Assembly (NCBI GenBank): GCA_947259195.1
Contig: CAMYLC010000067.1
Span: 18,070 to 82,069, forward strand
Reading direction: 5' to 3'
Length of the DNA: 64,000 nucleotides
Source: Thermoanaerobaculia bacterium
Lineage (GTDB): Bacteria > Acidobacteriota > Thermoanaerobaculia > Multivoradales > JAHEKO01
Part shown: positions 13,167-64,000 of the stretch, one piece after another
How the letters are laid out: every line of letters begins with the position of its first letter
How positions within the stretch are numbered: the stretch's first letter is position 1
The notes under the pieces: model-generated
The model's input: only the letters and a program-made list of their open reading frames with translations
Told to the model about the DNA's origin: nothing
Databases searched by the model: none
Made by a program: the position numbers and the translations under genes

Positions 13167-13194
13167 AAGCCTCCTGGGCCTCGAGCCGGTGGCG

Positions 13195-48175: not shown

Positions 48176-49566
48176 TGTTTCGGCGCTTCACCAACCTGGC
48201 GGCAGTTCACTTCATCGGCATTGGTGGGGCCGGTATGAGTGGCATCGCCGAGGTATTGCTGGACTACAACCTGGAAGTGAGCGGCTGTGATCAGTCCATG
48301 AGCGAGACGACAGAGCGACTTGCGAAACTCGGTGTGACTGTCTATCAGGGACATTCTGCCGCGCATGTCGAGACGGCCGATCTGGTCGTGATCTCCTCGG
48401 CGGTATCGAGAGACAACCCGGAAGTGGTAGCCGCCCACCAGAACAATATTACCGTGGTGCGCAGAGCCGAGATGCTGGGCGAGCTCATGCGCTTGAAGTA
48501 TGGCGTCGCCGTGGCGGGAACCCATGGCAAGACGACGACGACCTCGTTGATCGGGACTGTGCTGACGGAAGCGGGACTGGATCCGACGGTCATCGTGGGC
48601 GGTCGCCTGAGGGTCTCGGGCACCGGCGCTCGGCTGGGTAAGAGCGAATACCTGGTCGCCGAGGCCGATGAGTACGACCGCAGCTTTCTCAGGCTGCAGC
48701 CCATCCTGGCGGTGGTCACTTCGATCGACGAGGACCACTTGGACACCTACGCGAATCTGGACGAGATCCGTAAAGCCTTCGTGACTTTTGCTGGCAAAGT
48801 GCCGTTCTTCGGCCAGGCCATTCTCTGCCTGGACGACACCAATATCCAGGAGCTCCTGCCTCAGTTGAAGCAAGAGCACCGGGTCGTGACCTATGGACTG
48901 TCGCCGCAAGCCGATCTGAGAGCGACGGAGTTCGAGAGCACGCCCGCTGGATCTCGGTTCCAGGTCGTCGATTCACGTCAGGGCGAAATGGGGACGATCG
49001 AGCTGCCGATGCCGGGCCTGCATAATGTGCGCAACTCCCTGGCCGCGATAGCCGTGGGACAGGCGATGGGCGTTCCCTTCGTCAGCATCGCTCGGGCACT
49101 GGCGGGTTTCTCGGGTGTACATCGAAGGTTCGAGACCCGCGGTGTGTGGCGGGGCGCCAAAGTCATCGACGACTACGCCCATCATCCGACCGAGGTGACG
49201 GCAACTCTCGAAGCCGCTCGACAGGCCTTCCCGGGAGCCGTGATTCACGCCATCTTTCAACCGCATCTTTTCTCGCGGACTCGCCATCTGGCTCTCGAGT
49301 TCGGGCGTTCGCTGTTGGGGGCCGACAAGGCCGTGGTGACGGACATCTACCCGTCGCGGGAGCAGCCTGAGCCGGGAGTGACCTCCGATCTCGTGGTCGA
49401 GGCTGCCAGGCAAAGCGGTCACCGCGATGTCCGTTCCTGTGCCGACTGGCGGGAGGTCCCTCCAATGCTGGCGGCAGATGTCCAAGAAGGGGATGTGATC
49501 TTGACCCTCGGAGCCGGCGATATCTACCGCTTGGCGGAGCTGCTCGTTGCGGAGGGTGCGAGATGA
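48175..49566 (+). CDS. murC: UDP-N-acetylmuramate--L-alanine ligase
   Basis: The ATG at 48175 overlaps the murG stop. VHFIGIGGAGMSGIAEVL, VAVAGTHGKTTTTSLI, DDYAHHPTEV. Confidence 0.9.
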   Translation: MFRRFTNLAAVHFIGIGGAGMSGIAEVLLDYNLEVSGCDQSMSETTERLAKLGVTVYQGHSAAHVETADLVVISSAVSRDNPEVVAAHQNNITVVRRAEMLGELMRLKYGVAVAGTHGKTTTTSLIGTVLTEAGLDPTVIVGGRLRVSGTGARLGKSEYLVAEADEYDRSFLRLQPILAVVTSIDEDHLDTYANLDEIRKAFVTFAGKVPFFGQAILCLDDTNIQELLPQLKQEHRVVTYGLSPQADLRATEFESTPAGSRFQVVDSRQGEMGTIELPMPGLHNVRNSLAAIAVGQAMGVPFVSIARALAGFSGVHRRFETRGVWRGAKVIDDYAHHPTEVTATLEAARQAFPGAVIHAIFQPHLFSRTRHLALEFGRSLLGADKAVVTDIYPSREQPEPGVTSDLVVEAARQSGHRDVRSCADWREVPPMLAADVQEGDVILTLGAGDIYRLAELLVAEGAR

Positions 49567-50369
49567 AACCGCTAGATCTCCAGGTGTCGAGCCCGAGCCC
49601 GTTTCGGCGACGGCGATTCGTCGCGCCGCATCGGCGTCGCAGCCAAGTGCTGATGTTGGCACGACCCTTTCTGACTGCGCTACTGCTCGTCGGTCTGCCG
49701 GTAGCTGGAGGAGCCTGGGTCCTCACATCGCCCCGCTTCCTGCTCGACAACATCGTGATCAGTGGCACGAGTCGAGTTCGACCTTCCGAGGTCGCCGAGG
49801 CCCTGCGATCGCTGCGGGGAAAGCACCTTCTATTGGTCTCGCTTGCTGACGTGGAGAGTCGACTCTCCCAGAACCGATGGATCGAAGGGGCCAACCTGCG
49901 CAAGAAGATGCCCAACAGCCTCGTAGTAGAGGTCAAGGAGAGGCAACCGGTCATCCTGTTGAGGCGTGACGAAGGTCTTTTCTATGTCGATCGGAGTGGC
50001 ACCGTGATCGATCTCTATGATCCGGCGCGAGAGGCGGACCTGCTTTTGCTGAGTGTTGCCCCGGGTGTCGAATTGGAGGTTTGGCCAGCGCTCGCCATCG
50101 CAGCAGAGCTGGAACTGGTGGCGCCGGACTGGGCGTCGGGCCTGTCGGAGGTCGAGGTTTTGGGAGGAGATGATTTTCGACTCTTTACGGCGGCCCTGCC
50201 GTTTCCGGTACTGGTAAGTCTCGGCGGAGTCGGAAGACAGGTCAGGAAGTTCAGGCTAGTGATGCCCGAAATCGCCCGTCGGTACGACCGGGTCTCCGCG
50301 GTCGACCTTCGTTTCTCACGTCAAATCGTTGTTCAACCCGCGGTGGACCCGCGTAGTCAGGAGGGGTGA
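49563..50369 (+). CDS. ftsQ: Cell division protein FtsQ (POTRA domain)
   Basis: 268-aa bitopic ORF with a basic N-terminus, one TM and a POTRA-like segment (IVISGTSRVRPSEVAEAL...NLRKKMPNSLVVEVKERQP). Positioned between murC and ftsA. Confidence 0.75.
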   Translation: MKPLDLQVSSPSPFRRRRFVAPHRRRSQVLMLARPFLTALLLVGLPVAGGAWVLTSPRFLLDNIVISGTSRVRPSEVAEALRSLRGKHLLLVSLADVESRLSQNRWIEGANLRKKMPNSLVVEVKERQPVILLRRDEGLFYVDRSGTVIDLYDPAREADLLLLSVAPGVELEVWPALAIAAELELVAPDWASGLSEVEVLGGDDFRLFTAALPFPVLVSLGGVGRQVRKFRLVMPEIARRYDRVSAVDLRFSRQIVVQPAVDPRSQEG

Positions 50370-51616
50370 GGCTTATGCCCAAGGCGGACTCATACATCGT
50401 TGCCATCGACATCGGATCTTCGAAGGTCGGAGTGTTGATCGGGCAACGGGACGAGCGACAAGCTCTCGAAGTAGTTGGCAAAGGCGTCGCCCTCAACCGA
50501 GGGTCCCGTAAAGGGAACATCGTCAATGTCGAGGCGACGGTCGATGCTCTCAAGCAGGCCACCGAAGAGGCAGAGGTCATGGCCGGCATCGAGGTGTCGA
50601 GGGCCTTTGTCGGCGTGGCCGGAACCGATATCCGCAGTATCAACTCCCGCGGCATGGTCTCGGTGGCCAAGAAGGACCAGGACCGGGAGATCACGCGACA
50701 GGACATCAGTCGCGTCCTCGAGGCAGCGCAGTCTGCGGCGCTGCCCTCGGATCGCGAGATCCTCCACGCCATCCCGCAGGACTTCATCGTCGACGAGCAG
50801 GGTGGAATCTCCGATCCCATGGGGATGCTGGGAAGTCGCCTCGAGGTCGCAGTGCATCTGGTGACCGGCAACATCACTCGCCGCAAGACGCTGCTGACCT
50901 GCATCAATCGGGCTGGCATCGAAGTCATCGAGCTGGTATTCGAGCCCCTCGCCACGGCCGAGGCGGTCCTCACCCACGATGAGCGGGAGCTCGGGGCCCT
51001 GCTGCTCGATATCGGCAGCGGGACTACCGAGTACGCGGTCTTTGGTGATGGAGAGGTGCAGCACAGTGCGGTCCTGCCGGTAGGTGCCGGGCACTTCACC
51101 AACGACCTCGCCATGGTTCTGCGCACCCCTTTTGCGGAGGCCGAACAGATCAAAGTCAAGCACGGTTGCTGTCTCGGCGGCATGGTCGGCGAAGAAGAAG
51201 GCATATCGGTGCCGACGGTAGCGGGCGGGCCGCCGAGGGTCGTTCCCAAGCGGGAGCTCTGCGGCATCCTGCAGCCGCGGGCCGAGGAGATGTTGACTCT
51301 GGTGAGAGAGGACCTCTCCAAGTACGGCTTGGACGAGACTCTGCGCGGTGGTCTGGTGCTGACAGGAGGCGGCGCGCAGCTCGACGGCTACCTCGAATTG
51401 GCCGAGCAGGTATTCAACTGCACGGTCCGCTACGGCCTGCCTCAGCACCTGGCCGGCCTGGTGGACGTGATCAGCTCCCCGACCTGGACAGCGGCCTCGG
51501 GCCTGCTGCTCTACGGTCGAGGCGCGGAAGACCGACAACGTAGGACTATAAACACAGGTTTCAGCGTGCGTGGAGTGGTGACCAGTCTCCGCGGCATGTT
51601 CTCGGATTTACTGTAG
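50366..51616 (+). CDS. ftsA: Cell division protein FtsA
   Basis: 416-aa ORF; the start is either GTG 50366 or ATG 50375. Actin-fold motifs [44 protein letters not shown]-terminal amphipathic tail is present. Confidence 0.9.
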
Positions 51617-51648
51617 GAAGTAGAACCACCCGGAAGGAGAACAAGACA

Positions 51649-52896
51649 ATGATTCTATTTGACGATCACGAGATGGTAGGCAGTCTCCCCATCACCTTGG
51701 AAGAGGCGGAAGGCACGGCGGCCAAGATTACCGTCGTCGGCGTCGGTGGCGGTGGGGGAAACGCGGTGAACCGGATGATCGACTGCCAGATGCGAGGCAT
51801 CGAGTTTATCGCCGGCAATACCGACATGCAGGCGCTGCGGAAGTGTAGCGCGCCTGTGAAGCTCCAATTGGGCCCAACCCTGACCAGGGGTTTGGGCGCC
51901 GGCGGCGATCCGGAGGTAGGTCGCAAGGCGGCCCTCGAGGACACTGAGCGAATTCTGGAGCTTCTGGACGGTTCCGACATGGTGTTTCTCACGGCTGGAA
52001 TGGGTGGCGGGACCGGTACCGGAGCCATCCCGATCGTCGCGTCTCTGGCCGCTGAGCTGGGAGCTCTGACGGTAGCTGTCGTGACCAAACCCTTCACCTT
52101 CGAAGGCCGTCGACGCATGGAGATGGCGGAACGTGGAATCGAAGAGCTGCGGGGTGCGGTCGACACCCTGATCACCATTCCCAACGAGAGATTGCTCAAC
52201 TTCGTGGAGCGTGGAACGCCGCTCAACGAGGCCTTCCGCATTGCCGACGATGTCCTTCGCCAGGCGGTGCAAGGTATCTCCGATCTGATTACCGTGCCTG
52301 GCGAGGTCAACGTGGACTTCGCCGACGTGAAGACCATCATGACCGGTATGGGCATGGCACTGATGGGCACCGGCGTGGCCAAGGGCGAGAGCCGGGCCAT
52401 CGAGGCCGCCCAGCGCGCCATCTCGTCGCCCCTGCTGGAGGAGACCTCAGTCGAGGGCGCGAAGGGGGTGCTCATCAATATCTCCGGTGGCTCCGATCTG
52501 ACTCTTCACGAGGTGGATGAGGCGGCCAAGGTCATCGCTGAGGCAGTGGATTCGGCGGCCAATATCATCTCCGGTCTCGTCATCGACGAGTCGATGGAGG
52601 AAGAGATGAAGGTCACCGTGATCGCCACTGGCTTCCAGGTAGCAAATGCACCCATCTATAGCCAACCGTTCCTGCCCGCGGCCGAGAGTGACGAACCGGT
52701 CTATCCGCCAGAGCCGGTCGGGCCCGAGATGCAGGCAGAGCCAGAGCCGGTAGCCGAGGAGAAGGAGGAGGACATTCCGTTCTATCGCAAGGTAATCGCG
52801 CAGACCCAGCAGGACGACCCCAATGGTTACGGGCCGAACTGGTCGAACGTCGACGACTTCGACATTCCGACGGTGCTGCGGAAACAGATGGACTAG
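51649..52896 (+). CDS. ftsZ: Cell division GTPase FtsZ
   Basis: 415-aa ORF. Tubulin signature [17 protein letters not shown], and the conserved C-terminal peptide [12 protein letters not shown]. Confidence 0.95.
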
Positions 52897-53008
52897 AGGG
52901 GAAGACAGGGAGCACTAGGCGTATCGAGAGCAGCAGGCAGCAAGGCTGAGAATTCGAGTTGTCACTCTCGACGACTCCAGACTTCCGGGTGGATCGTCTC
53001 CAGGTGAA

Positions 53009-53605
53009 ATGGGCTTCACCTCCGCACGTGAACGACGACTGTGGATCTTGGCTGGCAGCTGCCTGCTGCTCATTTATTCTTCACTCTACATCGCCAGGCC
53101 CGTCACCAACTGGCTGCGGGACGCCAACTTGTTGCGCTTGGCAGTCGCAGGGGCCTTCCTCCTGGCAGCAGCAGGGGTTGGCCTCGGGCTTCTTCGGAGT
53201 CGCCCCGGGTGGCGTGTCTGGGTGGCGCTGGCAGGCATTGTCGCGGGCTACGTGGTTCTACTCTCTCGATTCGACCTACCCGAAGAGCGGCTTCACTTTC
53301 TAGAGTACGGACTGGTCGGCGGCCTGTTGTTCACGGCTCTTCTGGAGCGGCAGAAGAACACCAGGGGAGAATCCGGAGAGCTGTCGAGTCGCCGCGCCTT
53401 CCTTTGGCCGGCGGTTGGAGCCTTCGTCATGACGGGCCTTGCGGGGTGGATCGATGAGTGGATCCAGGCGGTCTTGCCCAACCGGTTCTACGATCTCAGG
53501 GACGTCGCCATGAACGCGGCGGGCGGGGCCCTTGCCGTGCTCTCGATCTGGGGTCTCGACCGCCTTCGCCAGATAGGTGAAAGGCCTCGGACCCGAGGTT
53601 TGTAG
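53009..53605 (+). CDS. VanZ-like membrane protein
   Basis: 198-aa ORF with ~5 TM helices. HFLEYGLVGGLL and DEWIQAVLPNRFYDLRDVAMNAAGGALAV match the VanZ family pattern. Confidence 0.6.
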   Translation: MGFTSARERRLWILAGSCLLLIYSSLYIARPVTNWLRDANLLRLAVAGAFLLAAAGVGLGLLRSRPGWRVWVALAGIVAGYVVLLSRFDLPEERLHFLEYGLVGGLLFTALLERQKNTRGESGELSSRRAFLWPAVGAFVMTGLAGWIDEWIQAVLPNRFYDLRDVAMNAAGGALAVLSIWGLDRLRQIGERPRTRGL

Positions 53606-53709: not shown

Positions 53710-54237
53710 ATGGAACAAGGTTTCGACGAGGCAAAGGCCCAACGCAATTGGTTGGAGCGATTGGGAGAGAAGATTCCCGGTTTCCGAGGCTTCCAGGATC
53801 GGGAGCTTCGAAGAGATGTCGACAAGTTGCAGCGCGAGTATCTCTCAGGCCAGGTGACGAAGGCCAAATCCACCCTTCGCAAGATTGCCGAGCGCTATAC
53901 GGATGCCGGCAAGATTGGAGTCCTGCATCTGTTCGACCGGCTCGACAAGCGATTGGATGGTCTGGCCCGGGCCATTCAGTTCAGCGATTATGGTGCGTCG
54001 GGCTTCTTCGATGTGATCAAGGTCGATGAGGCGGCTCTCGAGGAGCTTTATCGGTTCGATCTCGCTCTATTGGAGGAACTGTCGGGACTGGCTGACGACG
54101 CCGCAGCCATCCCAGCGCCCGCCGCCGGCGACCCAACGGAGGCTCTGGAGGTAACTCTAGATCGCCTCCAGCGACTGGAAGACAGGTGGGCGTTGCGGGA
54201 GAGCGCCGTCAACAAAGTCGTGCAAACAACAGGCTGA
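53710..54237 (+). CDS. Hypothetical soluble all-helical protein (first gene of the 53.7-60.8 kb cluster)
   Basis: 175-aa ORF with GGAGGG upstream of the ATG. There is no TM or signal peptide, and it has charged heptad-like helices (RELRRDVDKLQREYL, LDRLQRLEDRWALRE). I recognise no family. Confidence 0.5.
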   Translation: MEQGFDEAKAQRNWLERLGEKIPGFRGFQDRELRRDVDKLQREYLSGQVTKAKSTLRKIAERYTDAGKIGVLHLFDRLDKRLDGLARAIQFSDYGASGFFDVIKVDEAALEELYRFDLALLEELSGLADDAAAIPAPAAGDPTEALEVTLDRLQRLEDRWALRESAVNKVVQTTG

Positions 54238-54265
54238 TAGAGCCCTTGAGTCCTTAGGAGGACCG

Positions 54266-55306
54266 GTGATGAAGGTCATTCAATATGTAGACAGTACAGG
54301 CCAGACGATGGTAGCCAGGGTTCCCCGGCAGGGCACCGAGGCAATCAAGCTGGGTAGCCAGTTGATTGTCGAAGAGAGCCAGGAAGCGGTTTTCTACCGC
54401 GATGGCAAGGCTCTCGACACTTTTCGACCCGGTCGCCACACGCTCGCCACACAGAACTTGCCTCTGCTGGCAGGCCTGCTGGGGGTACCCTTCGAGGGAA
54501 AGTCGCCCTTCCAGGCGGCGGTCGTCTTCGTCTCGACGAAGACCTTTCTGGATCTCAAGTGGGGCACCAAGGAGCCGGTCGTCTATCGGGACAATGAGCT
54601 GGCGATGGTGCGGCTACGGGCGTTCGGCAAATTCGCCGTTCGCATCACCAACTCGCAGGTCTTCGTCAACGGGGTCGTCGGCACCATGGGGGTGTACACG
54701 ACCGATGGCGTGGAGTCCTACTTCAAAGACGTCATCGTTGCTCGCCTGACCGATGTGCTGGGTGAGAATCTGCAGTCGATTTTCGATCTGCCGAAGGTCT
54801 ACGACGAGCTGGCGATGGCACTGAAGGCCCGCGTCGCTGACGACTTCTCGAAGTACGGCATCGAACTGGTGGATCTCTACCTCGGCGCCATTACACCGCC
54901 GACCGATGTCCAGAAGCTCATTGACGAACGTGCCGGAATGGCCGCCGTGGGCGACATGAACGCCTACCTGAAATTCAAGGCTGCTCAGGCCATGGGCGAT
55001 GCAGCTCAGCAGTCGGGTGGAGAAACGGGAAGTGGGGTCGGAGCCGGCCTCGGAGTTGGCATGGGGGCGGGGATGGGCATGATGCTGCCGCAGATGATGA
55101 AGGAGGCGATGACCGATTCCGGTGGCGGCCAGGCTGCACCAAGTGAGCCAGCGACGGAGGGCCAGTCTCAACCCACGGGAGACGCCGCGGCTCCCGCAGC
55201 AGCGGGGACCGCTGCAGCGGCAGCCGCCTTCTGCCATTCCTGCGGTGGCAAGCTACCTACAGGTTCCCGGTACTGCCCCAGCTGCGGTACCAAGGTCGCC
55301 GAGTGA
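54266..55306 (+). CDS. SPFH/Band-7 family protein of the YdjI ('virion core protein'-like, Band_7_1) type with C-terminal zinc ribbon
   Basis: 346-aa ORF with AGGAGGA upstream. LIVEESQEAVFYRDGKALDTFRPGRHTL, KWGTKEPVVYRDNELAMVRLRAFGKFAVRI and GIELVDLYLGAITPP match my recollection of B. subtilis YdjI-type SPFH proteins. It has a Gly/Ala-rich linker and a terminal CHSCGGKLPTGSRYCPSCG. Confidence 0.8.
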   Translation: MMKVIQYVDSTGQTMVARVPRQGTEAIKLGSQLIVEESQEAVFYRDGKALDTFRPGRHTLATQNLPLLAGLLGVPFEGKSPFQAAVVFVSTKTFLDLKWGTKEPVVYRDNELAMVRLRAFGKFAVRITNSQVFVNGVVGTMGVYTTDGVESYFKDVIVARLTDVLGENLQSIFDLPKVYDELAMALKARVADDFSKYGIELVDLYLGAITPPTDVQKLIDERAGMAAVGDMNAYLKFKAAQAMGDAAQQSGGETGSGVGAGLGVGMGAGMGMMLPQMMKEAMTDSGGGQAAPSEPATEGQSQPTGDAAAPAAAGTAAAAAAFCHSCGGKLPTGSRYCPSCGTKVAE

Positions 55307-55370
55307 CCGGCGGACTCTCGCGGCTTGAGATCTTGACCGACCAGGCTGGACCGATCCGAGACCGTGGTCT

Positions 55371-56135
55371 ATGGCGACGGAGTTGAAAGACAGGGGTTTC
55401 GTCTGCACACAGTGCGGTGGAGAAGGCGACCTGGAGTCGGGCCAGCGCTTCTTGACCTGCCGGTTTTGTGACGCGACACTGTTCGTCGATCGATCGGGCG
55501 TGGTCAGCCACTACCGTCTGCCCCGTCTGTTGGGAGCAGATGAAGCCGAGGCGGCCTTGCGGCGGTGGATGGCTGGCAACGACACGGTCAAGGACCTCGA
55601 CAGCAAGAGCGGAATCGAAGCTGTCGAGGCGATCTCGTTTCCAGTGTGGCTCTTTCGGGTTCAGGCTGCCGGTGGAGAAGAGGTCTTCATCGAGCCGGCC
55701 GCTCCCACGACAATCCCGCAGTTGGCCGACTTCAAGCTGCCGGCCGGCAAGCTCGAGCCCTATCAAGCTGAAGAAGAAGTTGTCGAAGCGACCCCGGAGA
55801 CGATCCCTTTGGAAACCGCTCGGGGTTGGCTGGAACAGCGCGAGCTGGGTCGAGCGACCGAGACGGCTTTGGTACAGCTACCGCTCTGGAGATGTCGCTA
55901 TAGCTTCGAGAACCAGTCCTACCTGGCTCTGGTTGATGCCTCCACCGGCGCGGTGATGGCGGCCGTCTTCCCGGAGAAGGCCGAGAGCCCCTACTTCCTG
56001 GTCGCAGCTCTCGGGATCCTCCTCTTCACGATCGAGGGGTTGGCGATCTCCAACCCGGCCGCGAAGTTCGTGACCTACCTGGTTACCGCGATACCCCTTC
56101 TTCTACTAGCCTACTGGGTGGCCCGCAAGATATGA
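55371..56135 (+). CDS. Zn-ribbon membrane protein, paralogue 1 (CxxC-x14-CxxC, two C-terminal TMs)
   Basis: 254-aa ORF. CTQCGGEGDLESGQRFLTCRFC, then FPVWLFRV and LPLWRCRYSFENQSYLALVDASTG. The C-terminus has two hydrophobic helices. Confidence 0.6.
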   Translation: MATELKDRGFVCTQCGGEGDLESGQRFLTCRFCDATLFVDRSGVVSHYRLPRLLGADEAEAALRRWMAGNDTVKDLDSKSGIEAVEAISFPVWLFRVQAAGGEEVFIEPAAPTTIPQLADFKLPAGKLEPYQAEEEVVEATPETIPLETARGWLEQRELGRATETALVQLPLWRCRYSFENQSYLALVDASTGAVMAAVFPEKAESPYFLVAALGILLFTIEGLAISNPAAKFVTYLVTAIPLLLLAYWVARKI

Positions 56136-57256
56136 CCGAAGCCGTAGATTCTCCGGACACCGCACAGGTGCCCGATCGGGAGACCGAGGCCACGTTCGCG
56201 GGACGGGTCGAGGGCCTGAGCTGTCCGAGCTGCGGCGGAGCCCTCGACGTGGTGACAGGTCTGCGGGTAGTCACCTGTCCCTATTGTGAGAAGTCGCTCC
56301 TCGCCACTCCGGAGGTGGGCGTACGACGCTGGGTAGTCAAGCCGAGGCTCGGTGTCGACAAAGCTCGTGAGCTCGCCAAGCGTTGGCTATCGCAAGGCTG
56401 GAGCAAGGACGCGCGATTGCGACGCGAGGCCGAGACGGGCGAAGCCATCCTCTGCTTCCTGCCGTTCTATCGAGTGGAGGCCGACTGCATCGGTTTCGCT
56501 CTCGGTACCGAAGAGCGCCGTCGGACGGAAGGCTCGGGAAGCCATCGACGGCAAGTGGTCGAGGAGGTCGATGTGGAGCGGTCATTGGCCAGGAGCTTCG
56601 ACCGTACCTATCCGGCCCTCAACGTGGCGGAGTGGGGAATCCAGAGAATCGACCTGATGGGAGACGAGATCGTACCCTACGACGGGGTAGTTCTCGAGGG
56701 ACACGGCATGGTCTTCCCACCGACGGGCTCCGAAGTAGCGGTCAAGAAAGCCGCCATCGAGCAATTCAAGCTGCAGTCGGATCCGGCCAGAGGTCTCAAG
56801 CGGGTGCGCTTCCGTCATCTCGAGACTCTGCGAGAGCGTCTCAGTGTCGTCTACTACCCGCTCTGGGTCGTGCGCTATCGCTTCAGGAACCGTTCTTATC
56901 AACTCCTCATGGACGCCGAGGATGGATCGCTGGCTTATGGCAAGTCTCCCGGCAACGACTTGTTCCGAGCCGTCATGCTCGTCGGGTCGCAGGCTGTGGC
57001 CTTGTTCTTGGGGACAACGGCTTTGCAGCTGCTGGGCGGTAGCCCCGCGGGTCTTCTCATCATCGGTGGCGCCGTGGTCCTGGCCTTGACCTGGGGCTGG
57101 CGGCGCTTTCGCCACGGTGGAGTGGTGATCGAGGGTACAGGAGTCGATCCGGAGTTGGATCTGGGGGAGGCCTGGAGCACCCTGACGGATCGTGACGCCC
57201 AGGAGCAGATCCTACGTGACCTCATGCAGGGGCGCCTGCCGGAGATCGGTCGATGA
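56132..57256 (+). CDS. Zn-ribbon membrane protein, paralogue 2 (CxxC-x14-CxxC, two TMs, cytosolic tail)
   Basis: 374-aa ORF with an ATGA overlap to the upstream gene. CPSCGGALDVVTGLRVVTCPYC, FLPFYRVEA and YPLWVVRYRFRNRSYQLLMDAEDG are clearly alignable to paralogue 1. It has two TMs near aa 280-330. Confidence 0.6.
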   Translation: MTEAVDSPDTAQVPDRETEATFAGRVEGLSCPSCGGALDVVTGLRVVTCPYCEKSLLATPEVGVRRWVVKPRLGVDKARELAKRWLSQGWSKDARLRREAETGEAILCFLPFYRVEADCIGFALGTEERRRTEGSGSHRRQVVEEVDVERSLARSFDRTYPALNVAEWGIQRIDLMGDEIVPYDGVVLEGHGMVFPPTGSEVAVKKAAIEQFKLQSDPARGLKRVRFRHLETLRERLSVVYYPLWVVRYRFRNRSYQLLMDAEDGSLAYGKSPGNDLFRAVMLVGSQAVALFLGTTALQLLGGSPAGLLIIGGAVVLALTWGWRRFRHGGVVIEGTGVDPELDLGEAWSTLTDRDAQEQILRDLMQGRLPEIGR

Positions 57257-57879
57257 CCGTCGGCATCGAGTTCGCTCTCATTCCGCTGGACTGCCCGACC
57301 TGTGGAGCGGGAATCGACGCTCAGGGAGAAGATGTCGTTTACTACTGCACGGCCTGCCGCAACGGCTATCTCCTAGATGAGTCGGACTGGTCTCTGCGAC
57401 TCATCGACGCCTCCTTCGTCGCAGCAGCCCACCTCCAGGCAGAGGAATACAAGCCGTTCTGGCTCCTGCCGGCCAAGGTCGACATCGTTGACCGTCAGGC
57501 GAGCGGTGGAGGTTTCTCCGGTATCCTGCGCACGTTTTTCGGCAAGGACCGGACCCTCGACGAAGCCGGCAAGGGGGTCTTCGCAGTGCCGGCATTTCAC
57601 GCATCGCTCGAGTCGGTGACCCGCCTGGTACGCAGCTATACCGAAGCGCTTCCCGAGCTGAAGGAGAAGCTGGGCGAGCGTCTGCTGGGAGGGTGCTATG
57701 GGCGGCAGGATGCCGAGAAACTGGCTCACTATGCCCTGATTGCCACGGAGGTGGAAAAGCCCGACAAGCTGCTGGAGCTGAAATACGAAATCGAATTTGG
57801 TGAGCCCCGCCTTCTCGGAGTTCCTTTTTACAAGAAGGGTGATACCACTTTGGACGCCATCTTCGACATCGAGGTTTGA
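57253..57879 (+). CDS. Zn-ribbon protein, paralogue 3 (CxxC-x14-CxxC, soluble)
   Basis: 208-aa ORF with a 4-nt overlap to the upstream gene. CPTCGAGIDAQGEDVVYYCTAC, then KPFWLLPAKV. No TM segment. Confidence 0.55.
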   Translation: MTVGIEFALIPLDCPTCGAGIDAQGEDVVYYCTACRNGYLLDESDWSLRLIDASFVAAAHLQAEEYKPFWLLPAKVDIVDRQASGGGFSGILRTFFGKDRTLDEAGKGVFAVPAFHASLESVTRLVRSYTEALPELKEKLGERLLGGCYGRQDAEKLAHYALIATEVEKPDKLLELKYEIEFGEPRLLGVPFYKKGDTTLDAIFDIEV

Positions 57880-57982: not shown

Positions 57983-58819
57983 GTGAAGGAAACGACAGGC
58001 ATGATTATCGATGGCGTCGAGCTCTTTCTGAGCACTCCGGTAGAACAGGTTCCGCCCTGGGTCGGACAGCGTGAGGTCCTGATGCAGTTGCTCGCCGCCT
58101 GGTCGCGGGTGGAATCCGCAGATTTCCCCCTGAACCCGCGCCTCCTGGGGAAACCCGGTGTGGGGAAGACCACCCTCGCTTGTGCTGCTGCTCGAGAGCT
58201 GGGTCTGGATATCTACATTGCCCAGGCCACCATGGATACGCGCCCCGAGGACCTCATCGTCTCGCCGGTCCTGGCGAAGGAAGGTGGGGTTCGATACATG
58301 GCTTCGCCCTTGGTCAGCGCCATGGTTCGGGGCGGAGCCATGATTCTCGACGAAGGGAACCGAATGAGCGAGAAGTCGTGGGCATCCCTGGCTCCCCTGC
58401 TCGATCACCGGCGCTACGTGGAAAGCCTGGTGGCCGGAGTTCGTATCCCGGCGCATGACGACTTCCGCTTCGTGACCACCATGAACGAGGATGCCTCGAC
58501 CTATGAGCTGCCCGGTTACATCCACTCCCGACTGATGCCACAGATCTACATCGACTTCCCCGAGGAGGACGAAGAACGGGAGATTCTGCGTGCCCAGGTG
58601 CCGTTCGCCGACACTGAGGTCGTGGAGTACGTCTTGTCGTTCCTCCGGGCGGCACACGATCGCGACCTACGCTATACGGTTCGCGACGGCATCAATCTCG
58701 TGCGCTATGCCATGAAGCTTCTCAAGCGGGGTGAAGCTGAGAACGCACCCGATGCGGTCGATGCGGCCCTGAGACTGTCCGTGGGCGACGAGCAGATGGA
58801 GGAGTTCGAAATCTCGTGA
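57983..58819 (+). CDS. MoxR/NorQ/CbbQ-like AAA+ ATPase (AAA_5 type)
   Basis: 278-aa ORF with a GTG start (alternative ATG at 58001). Walker A LLGKPGVGKTTLA, Walker B AMILDEGNR, sensor-like FRFVTTMN and a helical lid. The size matches NorQ/CbbQ-type MoxR ATPases. Confidence 0.8.
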   Translation: MKETTGMIIDGVELFLSTPVEQVPPWVGQREVLMQLLAAWSRVESADFPLNPRLLGKPGVGKTTLACAAARELGLDIYIAQATMDTRPEDLIVSPVLAKEGGVRYMASPLVSAMVRGGAMILDEGNRMSEKSWASLAPLLDHRRYVESLVAGVRIPAHDDFRFVTTMNEDASTYELPGYIHSRLMPQIYIDFPEEDEEREILRAQVPFADTEVVEYVLSFLRAAHDRDLRYTVRDGINLVRYAMKLLKRGEAENAPDAVDAALRLSVGDEQMEEFEIS

Positions 58820-60822
58820 GCCAGCCGAGCGGCGCTGGCGTCGATCTGGATCGACTGGCCCCCGAAGTGGGTGAGGGCATTCGCCTGCTGCCGGTGGTTC
58901 ACGAACGCGTCGAGTTGGCCAGCGTCGCCCGGGCGGTACTCGAGGCCGTAGATCCGGCGGCGGTGGCCGTCGAGCTGCCGACAACCCTGAGGGAAGCGGC
59001 GGTCAGGGCCGTCGGGCGGCTTCCCCGGATCTCGCTGGTGATCTCGGAAGAACCGGGGTACCAAGCCCTGGTGTGGGTCGTGGCACCCGGTGACCCCCTG
59101 GTCGAGGCCATCCGCTGGGCGCTCGATCGTGACAGAGCCCTTTTCTGCGTCGATCCAGATCTCCCATATGAGGAGAGGCACCTAGACCGCGTTCCCGACC
59201 CCTATGCCCTCTTTCAGATGGGCGCGAGCGACTATCTCGAGAGCCTGCAACTCGGTCTGGAAGAAGGGGGCAAGTCCGAGGCCGATGATCGTCGAGAGTC
59301 GGGGATGGCCTTCCATCTTCAGCAGGCTCGCGACGAGATCTCTGGCCCCATTGTGGCATTCGTCGGAGCGGCCCACGTAGAGGGTGTCCGCTCCCGGGTG
59401 GGGGCACCCCTGGCGCATCCCTTTGCTCGTACGCGGCGCAATCGGGTTCTGGTGCGACACTTGGCTCCCAACAGTCTCACAGCACTGCTTCCGGATGCGC
59501 CGTTGGCACACGCCGTCTGGGAGCGAGTTCGGGAGGGTGAGGTTCCGGCTGAGACGGATCTGGGATCGACTCTCTCGCGTCGCCAATCCGTGATGCGCTT
59601 CGGCCTGCGAGTGATCCAAGGAGAGCGGGGGAGCGACGACGCCAACCGCGGAGAGAAACTCGTGGACTATGCCAGCTGCCTGGGAACTCGAGAGGCCCTT
59701 GGCGGCCGGTTGGCTCCCGATCGGGCACGCCTTGGCGGGGTCGTCTGGCGCATCGCAGCCGGCTCGTACACTGAGCAGACCGGCGAGTCGGCGGCCGCTT
59801 GGCAACGGAGAATGTTCTTCGACTACTCTCGGCGCTGTGCCAGGGTGCAGGGCAATCTGATACCGGGACTCTATGAATGGGTGATCGCGGCGCGCGGCGT
59901 CGGCGATGACAATCTCGCCTGGGAGGTCTTCGACGCATCCCGGACGTATCCCTGGCAGAAGGACCACGCAGAGATCGAGACCGCTTCCGTCGATGGGGAC
60001 GAACTGGATCTCGGCACGCGCTCGATCCGTTTTCGGCGTCGATTCTTTCGCGTCAAGCAGCGGCCGATCGCCGTCCCTGTGCGGCAGCACCCGCAAGCCG
60101 AAAGTCCGGAGGACTGGCTGCGGGCGTTCGATTCGTCAGGCCTGTGCTCCTACCCGCCGGAGGACCTTGTTGTCGAGGATTACGGGTGCTTTCTACAGAA
60201 GAAGGCCCTCTCGGTGCTGTCAGCGGAGCGCAAAAGGACCGAGCCATTCACCAGCAGCTTGCTGGACGGGATCGACGTTCGGGAGACGCTTCGCAACGTC
60301 CATGAAGACCGGATCTATGTGGAAGAGAAGGGACAAGTGCCGGGTGATGCAGGATCGGTGGTGGTCGTCTTCGATCGAGACTTGGACAACGAGCGGTACC
60401 CCTTTGCCATGACCTGGTTGGGAGAGCACGATCAGGAATCGGATATGGCGTTCTATGCGACGAATCCGGCGGACCAGGTGGTGGGTCCCGGAATGATGCG
60501 GGCGACCTACGGCGGTTTCGTGTTGACGCAGCCGAGGGGCAGGCTGTTCGATGTCTGGTCGGATGATGACTATCGACTCGCTCGTGGCAAGGCGGAGGTT
60601 CTGCTGATGGCCGCCGTCGACTACAGCCTCGAGAAGATCGTGGTGCATCTGGCGGCGGAGGCTCCCGCTGAGAGATTGCGCCGCTATGCCGCTGCTCAGG
60701 GCAAGCAGATCCTCCACATCCCGCTCGCCTCTCTCTCTCCCCTGAGCCTGAAAAAGATCCGTGTCATGCATATTCTTGCCGGCCGCGACAAGCGTGCTAT
60801 CGCGAAAGACTACATTTGGTGA
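58816..60822 (+). CDS. Large uncharacterised protein, N-terminus TraB/GumN-like, overall reminiscent of DUF5682
   Basis: 668-aa ORF with a GTGA overlap to the AAA+ gene. LLPVVHERVELASVARAVLEAVDPAAVAVELP, PLVEAIRWALDRDRALFCVDPDLP and IVAFVGAAHVEG resemble TraB/DUF5682 N-terminal patterns from memory. No TM and no clear MIDAS (DxSxS) motif. Confidence 0.55.
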   Translation: MSQPSGAGVDLDRLAPEVGEGIRLLPVVHERVELASVARAVLEAVDPAAVAVELPTTLREAAVRAVGRLPRISLVISEEPGYQALVWVVAPGDPLVEAIRWALDRDRALFCVDPDLPYEERHLDRVPDPYALFQMGASDYLESLQLGLEEGGKSEADDRRESGMAFHLQQARDEISGPIVAFVGAAHVEGVRSRVGAPLAHPFARTRRNRVLVRHLAPNSLTALLPDAPLAHAVWERVREGEVPAETDLGSTLSRRQSVMRFGLRVIQGERGSDDANRGEKLVDYASCLGTREALGGRLAPDRARLGGVVWRIAAGSYTEQTGESAAAWQRRMFFDYSRRCARVQGNLIPGLYEWVIAARGVGDDNLAWEVFDASRTYPWQKDHAEIETASVDGDELDLGTRSIRFRRRFFRVKQRPIAVPVRQHPQAESPEDWLRAFDSSGLCSYPPEDLVVEDYGCFLQKKALSVLSAERKRTEPFTSSLLDGIDVRETLRNVHEDRIYVEEKGQVPGDAGSVVVVFDRDLDNERYPFAMTWLGEHDQESDMAFYATNPADQVVGPGMMRATYGGFVLTQPRGRLFDVWSDDDYRLARGKAEVLLMAAVDYSLEKIVVHLAAEAPAERLRRYAAAQGKQILHIPLASLSPLSLKKIRVMHILAGRDKRAIAKDYIW

Positions 60823-60827
60823 TTGCA

Positions 60828-61177
60828 CGCCTGGGGCCTGGGTCCTGGGCAGATGACCCTCTTCTCGTAGAGGCCCGTCCGGGTGGTCCGCAGGCGGACG
60901 GCGACGGCTACTCAGACTACGACGGGCGGGCCGTCCCCTCGTCTCGTCATCGCGCCTCATCTGTTGTGCCCTTTGATGGCCCTGGCGCCGCGCTCGACTC
61001 GGCGCCCCCTGTCGAACCACCCGGACGGACCCCCCCAACCAAGGTCAACTGCGTAGGACCCAAGCCTCAGGACCTCAGTGCCTCAAGCCCTCAAAGGTCG
61101 GTCGGAGCAAGCGACGGACGATTCAACCCCCAAGCCTTCCAAGGCCGGCTGGAAGGTACGCCCGACCGCTTCAACCC
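60828..61177. repeat. Mosaic intergenic repeat cluster, locus 4 of 4 (convergent junction, 668-aa protein gene -> <- methyltransferase)
   Basis: CCTGGGGCCTGGGTCCTGGGCAGATGACC (60830-60858) and CCTCAAGCCCTCAAAGGTCGG...ATTCAACCCCCAAGCCTTCCAAGGCCGGCTGGAAGGTACGCCCGACCGCTTCAACCC (61081-61177). The latter parallels 29701-29789. Confidence 0.8.
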
Positions 61178-61932
61178 ATCTGGCCGTAGTACACCTGGGT
61201 GTCGTACTCGATGCTGACGTGATCGTCGATCTCGTGGGCCTCGAAAATCTCGCGTAGGGCCCGAAGCATGTCGGTGTGGCGGGGATGGTCCGGACCAGGG
61301 GTGTAGGAGGACGACAGGAGACGGGCCTTCAAGCCTTCGAAGCGGAAGCTCTGGTGGTTGTCGAAGGTGGCGGTGCCGATCGGCGCGCTGCCGTAGAAGG
61401 ACTGGATCTCCTTGGGCCCGATCCGAGTATGGTCAACCTCCTGGTAGTCCGTACCGTAGGCGAGCAGTAGTTCTTCGTAGGCTTGCAGAAATGGGCTGCT
61501 CTGCTTCCTGCGGTCGTTCCAGAGCAGGACCACCCAGCCTCGCGGCCGCAGTATCCTGGCGAATTCGCGTCGCGCCGCCCTGGCCTCGAACCAGTGAAAA
61601 GCCTGGCCGGCCGCCACCAGATCGACACAAGCACCAGGCAGTCCGGTGTCCTCGGCACTTGCGGCGAGGCTGGTGAAGAGGCGGTAGGTCGCCAGCAACG
61701 CCTCACCTGCTCTTCTCATCTGGGCATTGGGCTCGACGCCGTAGACTCGACAGCCACTTTCCAGGAAGAGACGGCTCAGAAAGCCGGTGCCGGAACCGAT
61801 GTCTGCCACCGCCCAGCCGGGTGAGAGACCACATTCAGCCTCCAGGAGCTCGACCACCGCCTGCGGGTAGGAGGGCCGGGAGCGGACGTAGCTTTCCACA
61901 CGACGGCCGAATCGTTCCGTAGGTTTCTTCAT
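61171..61932 (-). CDS. Class I SAM-dependent methyltransferase
   Basis: The start at 61932 (MKKPTERFGRRVESY) avoids overlapping the PilZ gene. SAM motif I VADIGSGTGFLS and Methyltransf_11-like VDLVAAGQAFHWF. Confidence 0.8.
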   Translation of the reverse strand: MKKPTERFGRRVESYVRSRPSYPQAVVELLEAECGLSPGWAVADIGSGTGFLSRLFLESGCRVYGVEPNAQMRRAGEALLATYRLFTSLAASAEDTGLPGACVDLVAAGQAFHWFEARAARREFARILRPRGWVVLLWNDRRKQSSPFLQAYEELLLAYGTDYQEVDHTRIGPKEIQSFYGSAPIGTATFDNHQSFRFEGLKARLLSSSYTPGPDHPRHTDMLRALREIFEAHEIDDHVSIEYDTQVYYGQMG

Positions 61933-62011
61933 GGTACTCGCTGTGGATATGCCGCCAGTGACACCCCGCGAATCGTTGGTGTGCAGCGGCCGTCCTGCAC
62001 CTGGCTCGGCT

Positions 62012-62359
62012 CTACGGTTCCGGGCTGTCCAGCACGGCCTCAAGGGCCTCGATGTCTTCGGGTGTCAAGTCTAGAAACTGGAGCCCGACGTCGAAGGATG
62101 CCGGTGCGTCTGCCGGTAGCTCCTGGAGCCAGACTACTTCGGTGAGGAAGGTCAGTTTCGACTCGTCCGGGAGCCTGAGCTCGACCTCGAGTCTGTGCCC
62201 GGGTTCCATTGGGGCATCGCTGTAGACGCGAACACCCCCCAGGCCCACATCGACGAGAAGACCTCCCCGCCCGGCCGAAGGACCCACTGGTCGGCAGTAG
62301 ATCGGCGCCTGCAGCCGTGGATAGCGCCTTCTCTCCTCGCGATCCGTGTGATCAGTCAA
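62012..62359 (-). CDS. PilZ domain protein (putative c-di-GMP receptor)
   Basis: 115-aa ORF. RRxxxR-type motif (EERRRYPRL) and D/NxSxxG-like LLVDVGLGGVRV. Confidence 0.7.
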   Translation of the reverse strand: MTDHTDREERRRYPRLQAPIYCRPVGPSAGRGGLLVDVGLGGVRVYSDAPMEPGHRLEVELRLPDESKLTFLTEVVWLQELPADAPASFDVGLQFLDLTPEDIEALEAVLDSPEP

Positions 62360-62441: not shown

Positions 62442-64000
62442 CTACATCCGGTCCGGCAGGGGTAGCCCCAGGAGGTCGCTGAGCACGGTCAGGCCCTGGA
62501 CAAACACCTGCATCGTTGCCAGTCGGGCATGGCGTTGCCTTGAGTCCTGCTCCTGCAGGATGGGGTGACGATGGTAGATAGCGTGGAATTTCTGCGCCAG
62601 CTCCAATGCGTGCCGGGCCAGGAGGGAGAGCTCCAGGGAGTCCGCGGCTGCCTCTGCCTTTTGTGGGATCAGCGAGACGGCCAGGATCAGGTCCCAGAGG
62701 TCGTCATCCCAGACTTCTGTTGGAAGAGCGGTTGCCTCTGCTGGTGAGACCTCGGTAGGGAGGCCGACCTCTCCGAGCCGGCGGCTTATATTGAGCGCTC
62801 TGACAGCTGAATACTGCAGGTAGGGTCCGGAGTCACCCTCGAAGCTCAAGGCCTCGTCGAGGTCGAAGGCGATGATCCGATTCGTCGTCGCCTTGACCAT
62901 GAAGAAGCGAAGAGCCGCGATCGCAATCTGGCGTGCCAAGATGTCGAGGGCCTCGGAGCTCAGCTCGCGATTCCTGGCGCTGATCTCCTCACGACTCTTG
63001 GCTTCCAGCCGGTCGATCAGGTCGTCGGCCTTGACTCCGATTCCCTTGCGCCCAGACATCTCGAGGCTACCTGAGGCCTCCTCGGTGTCGTCTTCGAGGA
63101 ATCCGAACTGACGCGCTGTCGACGGCGAGAGGGTTACCATTTCATAGGCGAAGTGGATCGACCGCCTGGCCTGCTCGTGGTAGCCGAGCGCGTCGAGCCC
63201 GGCACGGACGATCTTCTGCAGGTAGCCCTGGCGGATGTCGATCACGTTGATCACGCGGTCTGCCTTGCCAAAGCTCGGGTGCTCGGGCACGCCGTCTACA
63301 GTGGTCTCCCAGACGTCCTCCGCCCGCCAGAAGCGATACTGGAAGTCCTTGTCGAGAAGGCCGAACTTCCACAGCTGGTAGGCGATGTCCTTGCCGACAT
63401 AGGTCACGGTACCGTCGGAGCGCACGATCACCTTGTCGGGATCCTCGAGGCCGGCAAACTCCTCGCTTTCCGACAGTGGCATGACCCAGCAACCTACGTT
63501 CTTGCCGGCGTCTTCAAAACGGACGGCATCTGTGGATTTGAGTTGCTCGAAGGCGTCGGAAAAGAAGTCGAGGCCCAGCACCGCTCCCTCGTGGGTCAGT
63601 AGATCGTAGGCGATGTCCAGTCGTCGCATCGTCGCCAGATGACGGCTGACGACGCGGCGTGAAACGAGCCGTGCCATCTCGGCACGAGGTCCGCTGCCGT
63701 GCTCGAGCTCCTGCAGGGTCAGGCGGCGGAGCTCCTGGTTCTCAGGGTCTTCCCCGTACCACCTACCGACTTCGCTGTAGAGATCCCAGCAGTAGTAGTC
63801 GAAGGGCTCGGGTAGGGCGGCGACCTCCTCGAGAGTCATCTGCCGCAGGTCCATGAAGCCGACGACGACGTCGGCCAGCTGCACACCCGTGTCGTCGATG
63901 TAGTTCTCTACCTCGACGGTATGTCCCAGGGCACGTAGGACCTTGCTCAACACATCCCCGAGGACCGCATTGCGAAGATGACCGATGTGCGCTGCCTTGT
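62442..64000 (-). CDS. argS: Arginine--tRNA ligase (N-terminus beyond window end)
   Basis: The frame is open to the window end. The reverse complement of the last bases encodes KAAHIGHLRN (class I HIGH motif). It also has an MSGRKG motif and a C-terminal DALR anticodon-binding helical domain. Confidence 0.9.
   Translation of the reverse strand, partial: KAAHIGHLRNAVLGDVLSKVLRALGHTVEVENYIDDTGVQLADVVVGFMDLRQMTLEEVAALPEPFDYYCWDLYSEVGRWYGEDPENQELRRLTLQELEHGSGPRAEMARLVSRRVVSRHLATMRRLDIAYDLLTHEGAVLGLDFFSDAFEQLKSTDAVRFEDAGKNVGCWVMPLSESEEFAGLEDPDKVIVRSDGTVTYVGKDIAYQLWKFGLLDKDFQYRFWRAEDVWETTVDGVPEHPSFGKADRVINVIDIRQGYLQKIVRAGLDALGYHEQARRSIHFAYEMVTLSPSTARQFGFLEDDTEEASGSLEMSGRKGIGVKADDLIDRLEAKSREEISARNRELSSEALDILARQIAIAALRFFMVKATTNRIIAFDLDEALSFEGDSGPYLQYSAVRALNISRRLGEVGLPTEVSPAEATALPTEVWDDDLWDLILAVSLIPQKAEAAADSLELSLLARHALELAQKFHAIYHRHPILQEQDSRQRHARLATMQVFVQGLTVLSDLLGLPLPDRM

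Follow-up and report, generated by a model that had tools for sequence, protein, structure and literature searches.

Does a MoxR-class AAA+ ATPase need a VWA adaptor? Members of this class are seen as motors that act through adaptors with a VWA domain and its metal ion-dependent adhesion site (MIDAS), as in NorQD, CbbQO, CoxDE, CobST, BchID, RavA-ViaA and midasin. The question is raised by two adjoining genes in a stretch of 64,000 nucleotides (nt) from a Thermoanaerobaculia genome (contig CAMYLC010000067.1), hereafter the window, whose numbering is used below unless another locus is named. A short MoxR-class ATPase gene is followed there by a gene for a protein of 668 amino acids (aa), which we call the partner. 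In this study, we found that the two genes form one obligate unit and that the partner is not a VWA protein. The genes and the site that links them are as follows.

57983..58819, plus strand: MoxR-class AAA+ ATPase gene, with Pfam AAA_5 and AAA_3 matches
58816..60822, plus strand: partner gene, 668 aa, supported by family-wide homology and an AlphaFold2 (AF2) model
58798..58819, plus strand: translational coupling site, GGAGGAG then GTGA, read from the sequence

The first-pass annotation of this DNA had described a translationally coupled pair, and we confirmed both open reading frames (ORFs), of 278 aa at 57983-58819 and 668 aa at 58816-60822, as well as the overlap between them, a GTGA at 58816-58819 in which the GTG start of the partner gene overlaps the TGA stop of the ATPase gene. 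A Shine-Dalgarno-like GGAGGAG (58798-58804) lies 13 nt upstream. The G+C content of the pair is the same as that of its surroundings, and a scan for promoters and terminators gave nothing over background.

We conclude that the partner is not a VWA protein because four independent tests, of motif, Pfam family, profile and fold, agree. No D-x-S-x-S of the MIDAS type occurs anywhere in its 668 residues, just as had been reported at first, and within the relevant domain the motif appears in 2 of 105 relatives, which is consistent with chance. A Pfam scan of 56 diverse relatives of the partner returned no VWA-type family at E ≤ 0.1. When the partner family was compared by hhalign with a profile of nine VWA sequences (the source genome's own VWA domains plus YehP, with invariant MIDAS residues), the probability of a match was 0.2 %. 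Finally, an AF2 model built on an alignment of 105 diverse sequences reached a mean predicted local distance difference test (pLDDT) score of 91.1, with values above 90 in the C-terminal domain, and the Foldseek check that had been proposed for a VWA fold gave, with this model, nothing in the Protein Data Bank (PDB) below E 0.19 and no VWA. This model supersedes an earlier one made with 22 close relatives, in which residues 393-668 had a pLDDT of 64 and Foldseek was uninformative. In the model, seven strands in succession (aa 474-571) form the core of the C-terminal domain, unlike the alternating Rossmann-like order of a VWA domain. The segment once put forward as the nearest MIDAS candidate, SVVVVFDRDLDNE, falls inside this run and consists of a β-strand with D-x-D behind it, in a domain with no VWA signal. 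Thus, of the two possibilities entertained at the outset, a degenerate VWA domain fails the Pfam, hhalign and Foldseek tests, and a different class of adaptor for a MoxR ATPase is the one that holds.

How firmly, then, are the two genes tied to each other? A scan of the species genomes of the Genome Taxonomy Database (GTDB) found at least 559 loci encoding a relative of the partner; 80 of these were fetched, and 71 had enough upstream DNA. The fetched loci come from Acidobacteriota (mostly Thermoanaerobaculia), Myxococcota, Geobacteraceae and Desulfobacterales, and the Geobacteraceae carriers include cultured Geobacter, Geomonas and Pelotalea. In 67 of the 71, the gene immediately upstream, and on the same strand, is that of the ATPase, and this adjacency is kept at partner identities of 26-35 %, including on a Neochlamydia plasmid. 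Across 69 loci, the pairwise identities of the two proteins correlate with r = 0.95. A co-occurrence survey, which the first-pass annotation had called for, was run on an even sample of the phylum comprising 151 genomes: the identical 11 genomes carry both partner and ATPase, and the remaining 140 carry neither. The pair is absent from a sampled genome of the same family as the source. In one genome of 8.3 Mb (G101), the partner (L099, 2131-4296) and the ATPase (L100, 4020-4856) are on different contigs and both have been kept. More than 2224 homologues of the partner were found, with 1302 clusters at 50 % identity and E ≤ 1e-3, and at least 8000 homologues of the ATPase; because both genes have thousands of homologues and the pairing is conserved, the pair that we observe is more than chance. 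When a third conserved gene was sought among the 80 loci, no other ORF cluster was present in more than 18 of them. The ATPase and the partner are therefore one obligate unit, co-inherited and co-diverging.

Individual loci offer further observations. On the 231-kb plasmid pS13 of Neochlamydia sp. S13 (NZ_AP017978.1), an amoeba symbiont, the pair (L003, 7093-9806; ATPase 58 % and partner 35 % identical) sits between a TtcA-family gene and surE, and its members are annotated as 'AAA family ATPase' and 'hypothetical protein'. The separated genes of G101 have a housekeeping setting, with the partner next to a pyridoxal phosphate decarboxylase gene and the ATPase between holA and an M16 peptidase gene. 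In a metagenome-assembled genome of Geobacteraceae (L056, 1419-5999 of WSYB01000006.1), genes for an SNF2-family helicase of 1166 aa and, on the opposite strand, an NTP_transf_8 nucleotidyltransferase of 333 aa are inserted between the two; this insertion may be mobile or of a defence type, and a similar large gene lies upstream of the partner at L050. A longer, divergent member of the partner family on a metagenome contig (P0133, 806 aa; L094, 5001-7421) has no AAA+ gene within 5 kb, and the gene upstream of it bears a precomputed 'AbpE_bact' label that the Pfam scan did not reproduce. An apparent fusion of ATPase and partner in genome G129, a 1017-aa open frame, was rejected as a spurious upstream extension, with the ATPase encoded as a separate gene in another frame.

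If the partner is not a VWA protein, what is it? Its sequence and model divide it into an N-terminal half with remote relatives in known families, a basic linker and a C-terminal domain of its own.

58864..59415, plus strand: TraB/TIKI-like domain, aa 17-200, with H29, E53, R160-E161 and G184-x-x-H187, from hhalign and from hidden Markov model matches in relatives
59416..59991, plus strand: middle region, aa 201-392, mostly helical and common to YehM/DUF5682, with the hhalign alignment reaching residue 359
59548..59712, plus strand: lineage-specific insertion, aa 245-299, whose columns are gapped in most relatives of the wider family
59992..60105, plus strand: basic disordered linker, aa 393-430, TRSIRFRRRFFRVKQRP, with pLDDT below 50 at 413-424
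60106..60822, plus strand: family-specific α/β C-terminal domain, aa 431-668, with the highest conservation and pLDDT above 90

The first-pass annotation had described a TraB/GumN-like N-terminus, and this description was borne out. All of the partner motifs that it quoted are present (VVHER at residue 27, AVAVELP at 49, EAIRWAL at 97, FCVDPDLP at 110 and GAAH at 184, as well as SVVVVFDRDLDNE at 514). Against a TraB/GumN profile made from seven sequences from genomes of the same phylum, hhalign gave a probability of 93.6 % (E 2.1e-7) over residues 21-198 and 176 columns, that is, over the whole TraB domain. The signature residues are in register: H29 aligns with GTAH, E53 with E, R160-E161 with ER[DN], and G184-x-x-H187, which in the partner reads G184-A-A-H187, with GAGH. 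H29, E53, R160, E161, G184 and H187 are kept in 91, 91, 90, 81, 81 and 85 of 105 relatives, respectively (77-87 %). Among the 56 diverse relatives, TIGR00261 (traB) matches 8, with a best E of 8.1e-6, and Pfam TraB matches 3; the partner itself has no Pfam TraB match at E ≤ 1. The top fold match of the model in BFVD is a Marseillevirus 'TraB family protein' (probability 0.97, E 1.5e-2, template-modelling score 0.38). In the TIKI superfamily, a His-Glu pair is the catalytic core, and members without it are inactive (PMC6254334). Because this pair is kept in the partner, its TraB-like domain is probably active, or at least ligand-binding.

The same half of the protein accounts for its resemblance to DUF5682, the family that the first-pass annotation had brought up as occurring next to AAA+ genes. 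The yehLMPQ operon of E. coli encodes an AAA_5 ATPase (YehL), a true DUF5682 protein (YehM, E 2.4e-98), a CoxE-type VWA protein (YehP) and a SWIM protein (YehQ). Against Pfam DUF5682 (PF18934), the partner scored E 0.065 and 12 bits, compared with a gathering threshold of 26, over positions 164-208 of a model of about 700 positions, and sub-threshold matches were found in 18 of the 56 relatives, with a best E of 1.1e-7. A comparison of two profiles by hhalign, one of 105 partner relatives and one of 24 YehM-family proteins, aligned residues 20-359 of the partner with YehM 2-321 (96.2 %, E 2.2e-9) and gave no alignment beyond residue 359. As judged from sequence, the N-terminal half of the partner is a remote homologue of the N-terminal half of YehM/DUF5682, and the C-terminal domains of the two are unrelated. 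Relatedness to DUF5682 was thus upheld, whereas membership was not, and the homology is limited to about residues 20-359. Likewise, the proposed pairing of DUF5682 with an AAA+ gene carries over only in part: the ATPase is not of the YehL type (E 0.1), and the real DUF5682 operon includes the VWA protein YehP. The source genome contains no canonical DUF5682 protein. The 55-residue insertion at aa 245-299, which is restricted to the partners of this lineage, is modelled as β-hairpins plus a helix.

Beyond the region shared with YehM, the partner has a linker (aa 393-430) that is Arg/Lys-rich in most of 14 relatives sampled, though just 19 % identical. By analogy with the finger of NorD (PMC13036017), it is a candidate for an element that enters the pore of the ATPase ring. 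The C-terminal domain that follows is the best conserved part of the protein, with a mean pairwise identity of 41 % versus 28 % for the TraB-like domain. Residues G485, E537, H652 and R660 are invariant; E449, D450, E454, D484, D487, E490, T491, R493, E541 and S542 are nearly so; and the tail ends in DYIW. Scans of the partner family gave no Pfam or NCBIfam match to this domain, and searches of the PDB gave none either, whether by sequence with both family profiles or by fold. Readings of its acidic motifs as HAD-like (DxDx) or PD-(D/E)xK were rejected, since such common folds are absent from the Foldseek matches in the PDB.

The ATPase, in contrast to the partner, belongs to a known class, with features as follows.

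57986..57990, plus strand: AAGGA Shine-Dalgarno-like site, 10 nt before ATG 58001, read from the sequence
58148..58171, plus strand: Walker A, G56-KPGVGK-T63, at least 98 % identical in most columns and above 90 % in the rest (n = 76)
58223..58255, plus strand: acidic loop between Walker A and Walker B, Q81-ATMDTRPEDL-91, with DTRPEDL (85-91) at least 98 % conserved
58340..58363, plus strand: Walker B, M120-ILDEGN-R127, with LDE.NRMSEK essentially invariant (n = 76)
58484..58534, plus strand: candidate sensor-1 residue N168 and candidate arginine finger R183 (TTMNED...YIHSRL), with N168 and HSRL at least 98 % conserved
58682..58711, plus strand: candidate sensor-2 region, R234-DG...R241-YA, with RDG and RYA at least 98 % conserved

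By its Pfam matches, the protein is a MoxR-class AAA+ ATPase, as it had been named from the start (AAA_5, 58.4 bits against a gathering threshold of 22, E 9.9e-16; AAA_3, 31.2 bits against 27, E 2.3e-7). Its nearest solved relatives in a PDB sequence comparison are single AAA modules of midasin, and the top full-length matches are CbbQ (5c3c) and NorQ (9qhd, 9qh4), with E of about 1e-9 to 1e-7 over residues ~50-265, in keeping with the NorQ/CbbQ-type size attributed to it. No NCBIfam model claims it; the GvpN equivalog scored 29 bits against a cut-off of 267. Nor is it, in sequence, specifically related to YehL of E. coli (BLASTP E 0.1). The ORF encodes 278 aa if read from GTG 57983 and 272 aa from ATG 58001; the latter, residue M7, is most likely the true start because AAGGA lies 10 nt upstream of it and most orthologue alignments begin at residues 7-9.

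Orthologues from 75 other loci are 50-98 % identical to the window ATPase, and conservation was read from the 76 aligned sequences. Walker A (GKPGVGKT) and Walker B (MILDEGNR) are found as first quoted, at residues 56-63 and 120-127. From its position, the DTRPEDL loop would occupy the place of the MoxR helix-2 insert; N168 and R183 are candidates for sensor 1 and the arginine finger by analogy with MoxR motifs, and R234 is the putative sensor 2. The motif set for ATP binding and hydrolysis is thus intact at the level of sequence. Only about 50 residues precede Walker A, and because there is almost no N-terminal extension, the ATPase lacks a target-binding domain of its own.

How might such a pair work? 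We favour a model, to which we would give an even chance, in which the two genes encode a self-contained MoxR-class AAA+ machine that has no need of a VWA adaptor, with the partner as an effector whose TIKI-type site is gated by the motor. The ATPase would form a hexameric ring that binds the partner. In NorQD, the finger of NorD enters the NorQ pore and touches the H2 inserts, the NorD C-terminus binds the post-sensor-1 loop, and ATP hydrolysis then remodels the NorD linker (PMC13036017). Docking here may be similar, with an extended element of the partner in the pore and a second contact from its C-terminal part. The basic linker (393-430), which would lie opposite the acidic, conserved DTRPEDL of the ATPase, is a candidate for the first, and the C-terminal domain or its DYIW tail for the second. 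Driven by ATP hydrolysis, the ring would then reshape the partner or a client bound to it, and this remodelling would gate the TIKI-type site, presumed to be that of a hydrolase (of peptides or esters) or to bind a small ligand. Because no client gene travels with the pair, we favour the partner itself as the effector, which might act on a common cellular component. A bolder form of this model, tentative and on balance unlikely, would make the pair a new class of AAA+ machine: an ATP-driven hydrolase of the TIKI/TraB type, in which aa 431-668, a new domain, and a basic pore loop take over the docking role that VWA domains have in all characterized MoxR systems and the substrate is a cellular component shared widely. 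With such a substrate, the absence of an accompanying client gene would be accounted for.

Several observations weigh against a motor-gated effector. About 13-23 % of relatives are without one signature residue or another, whether through misalignment or real loss, and the first motif of the partner is P-V-x-H, not G-T-x-H. The proposed fold of the N-terminal domain comes from profile comparisons and one BFVD match (E 1.5e-2), and in the Foldseek search of the PDB, solved TIKI-fold structures (ChaN, Bcr135, PMT) were not in the top 50. Conservation is higher in the C-terminal domain than in the TIKI-like one, so that the principal activity may lie in the former. Every carrier genome encodes generic VWA proteins elsewhere, so a VWA protein encoded in trans might serve the pair. 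The complex, the hexamer and the enzymatic activity are inferences from sequence and from other MoxR systems, and docking by finger and tail is proposed by analogy with NorQD.

The strongest alternative, and still an unlikely one, is that the pair is a chaperone for cofactor or metal insertion like NorQD, CbbQO, CoxDE or CobST, with the TraB/ChaN-like domain holding a metal or a tetrapyrrole. Known maturation systems, including NorQD, CbbQO and CoxDE, are typically encoded beside their clients, whereas this pair has no conserved neighbour. The kept His-Glu pair, moreover, is a hydrolase signature (PMC6254334). Nonetheless, metalloenzyme maturation is the task of most characterized MoxR systems of such size (PMC13036017, PMC9976466), haem-binding ChaN is a member of the TIKI superfamily (PMC6254334), and both domains of the partner contain many conserved acidic and His residues.

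Next, and improbable in our judgement, is an anti-phage or conflict system that spreads horizontally, with the NTPase as sensor or motor and the partner as hydrolytic effector. Such a system would fit the patchy distribution of the pair (11 of 151 genomes of the phylum, and missing from the sampled genome of the same family), its presence in distant phyla and on the Neochlamydia plasmid, and the one locus with an SNF2 helicase and a nucleotidyltransferase between its genes; an AAA_5 NTPase with an effector-bearing partner also recalls McrBC. However, the partner had no matches in PADLOC-DB, and those of the ATPase were at the level of the P-loop only (IetA and TRIP13, E 1.6e-4 or weaker). The pair, which is single-copy and does not depart from its surroundings in G+C, showed neither a nuclease domain nor that of any other known defence effector. 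Its flanking genes are housekeeping genes that differ between lineages, and the ATPase is 50-80 % identical between phyla, which is unusually high for a defence gene.

We find it still harder to see the pair as a reduced YehL-YehM-YehP-YehQ system whose VWA (YehP-like) and SWIM (YehQ-like) parts are encoded elsewhere in the genome. The homology of about 340 N-terminal residues to YehM, the fact that YehM adjoins the MoxR ATPase YehL and the presence of some VWA proteins in every carrier genome all point that way. Yet the ATPase does not resemble YehL, the two partners have unrelated C-terminal halves, and the DUF5682 score (12 bits against 26) and the want of a canonical DUF5682 protein in the source genome argue against it. 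Full-length VWA_CoxE (CoxE-type VWA) proteins were found in only 5 of the 11 carrier genomes, the source genome not among them, and no VWA or SWIM gene is adjacent to the pair in any locus inspected.

Very little speaks for a seven-gene system that would unite the pair with the genes just upstream of it, a same-strand cluster of five at 53710-57879 (plus strand). These encode a 175-aa protein without a Pfam match, an SPFH/Band_7_1 protein that has a zinc ribbon at its C-terminus (54266-55306), and a further three proteins, 254, 374 and 208 aa long, with N-terminal CxxC zinc-ribbon-like motifs, of which two have hydrophobic C-termini and none a significant Pfam family. In the window, the seven genes share a strand and follow one another closely, although a gap of 103 nt separates the cluster from the ATPase gene. 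In the related locus L001, all five recur together near the pair, but with three unrelated genes in between, two of them on the opposite strand; the cluster is missing from L002 and most other loci, and its zinc-ribbon ORF clusters appear in just 5-6 of the 80. Because three unrelated genes part it from the pair in L001, the SPFH/zinc-ribbon cluster looks like a separate, uncharacterised module that is a lineage-local neighbour of the pair.

Least credible of all is an ordinary MoxR-VWA pair of the NorQ/NorD or CbbQ/CbbO type whose VWA/MIDAS (about aa 480-620) has degenerated past recognition. In its favour, NorQ and CbbQ are similar to the ATPase in size and are its best full-length solved matches, and a strand that runs into acidic residues (VVVVFDRDLD, aa 515-524) bears a superficial likeness to the beginning of a MIDAS. 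Against it, on top of the motif, Pfam, hhalign and strand-order results given above, the C-terminal domain matched none of the many VWA structures in the PDB, although its model has a pLDDT above 90.

The remainder of the neighbourhood can be described briefly. At 48115-53605 (plus strand) lies the end of a division and cell-wall cluster (murC, ftsQ, ftsA and ftsZ, then a VanZ-like membrane protein at 53009-53605), which is ordinary housekeeping context. Downstream of the pair, the window has a class-I methyltransferase gene (61171-62043, minus strand), followed by a gene for a stand-alone PilZ-domain protein of 115 aa (62012-62359, minus strand) that adjoins the arginyl-tRNA synthetase gene (62442-63998, minus strand). 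In L001 and L002, which come from two Acidobacteriota genomes, a convergent gene of about 551 codons without a Pfam family lies just 3' of the pair (12178-13833 and 12197-13855, respectively, both minus strand); it is absent from the window, where the methyltransferase gene takes its place.

Systems in which a MoxR AAA+ ATPase has its own dedicated partner are already familiar; what is new here is that the partner has no VWA domain and ends in an unclassified domain. One evident misannotation aside, databases name the two proteins 'hypothetical protein' and 'MoxR-like ATPase'. In our literature search, we found no paper on the pair and none that mentions DUF5682, yehM and yehL appeared only in gene lists, and nothing relevant linked MoxR with TraB. 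The pair, found in at least 559 species-level genomes and with 1302 clusters of partner homologues, has a non-VWA protein as its sole obligate companion, which implies that the VWA-adaptor rule is not general. If the favoured model of a motor-gated effector is correct, TraB/TIKI proteins would gain their first energy-dependent context. The C-terminal domain (aa 431-668) stands out in its own right as a large, strongly conserved domain without a family assignment or a structural relative in the PDB. With two soluble proteins and orthologues in cultured Geobacter, Geomonas and Pelotalea, the system is a tractable one in which to study the coupling of a MoxR ring to a partner of another kind.

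Comparison with known systems places the pair between several of them. McrB-McrC offers the precedent of an AAA_5 ring with a non-VWA partner that brings the catalytic effector and uses the pore for docking. In that system, McrB binds DNA through a domain of its own and runs on GTP, and McrC carries a PD-(D/E)xK nuclease; we detected no sequence relationship between the two systems, and none of these special features was seen in the pair. To our knowledge, no AAA+ link has been described for TraB/GumN proteins. The partner resembles the TraB/PrgY/GumN family (PF01963, TIGR00261) in that its residues 21-198 align over the full length of the TraB domain and match the signature His, Glu, Arg and GxxH positions. 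The TraB/GumN proteins that we sampled are 300-400 aa long, and several of them have a signal peptide or a membrane segment at the C-terminus; in contrast, the domain in the partner is cytoplasmic, is fused to about 470 more residues and is tied to an ATPase.

The YehL-YehM pair of E. coli has the same layout, a MoxR-class AAA_5 gene directly followed by one for a large soluble protein, and the first ~340 residues of YehM are homologous to residues 20-359 of the partner, including the TraB-like H, E, RE and GxxH motifs. However, YehM ends in ~440 residues that are rich in Ala and Leu and show no alignment to the C-terminal domain of the partner, YehL has 362 aa versus 278 aa here and is not specifically related to our ATPase, and the yeh operon adds YehP (VWA) and YehQ (SWIM) genes that are not at the locus of the pair. 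Finally, NorQ-NorD and CbbQ-CbbO differ in having a VWA/MIDAS partner and adjacent client genes. They nonetheless resemble our pair in the size and motifs of the ATPase and in the one large dedicated partner encoded next door, and with NorQ-NorD it likely shares a common logic as well, in which an element of the partner enters the pore of the ring and a second contact is made by its C-terminal part (PMC13036017).

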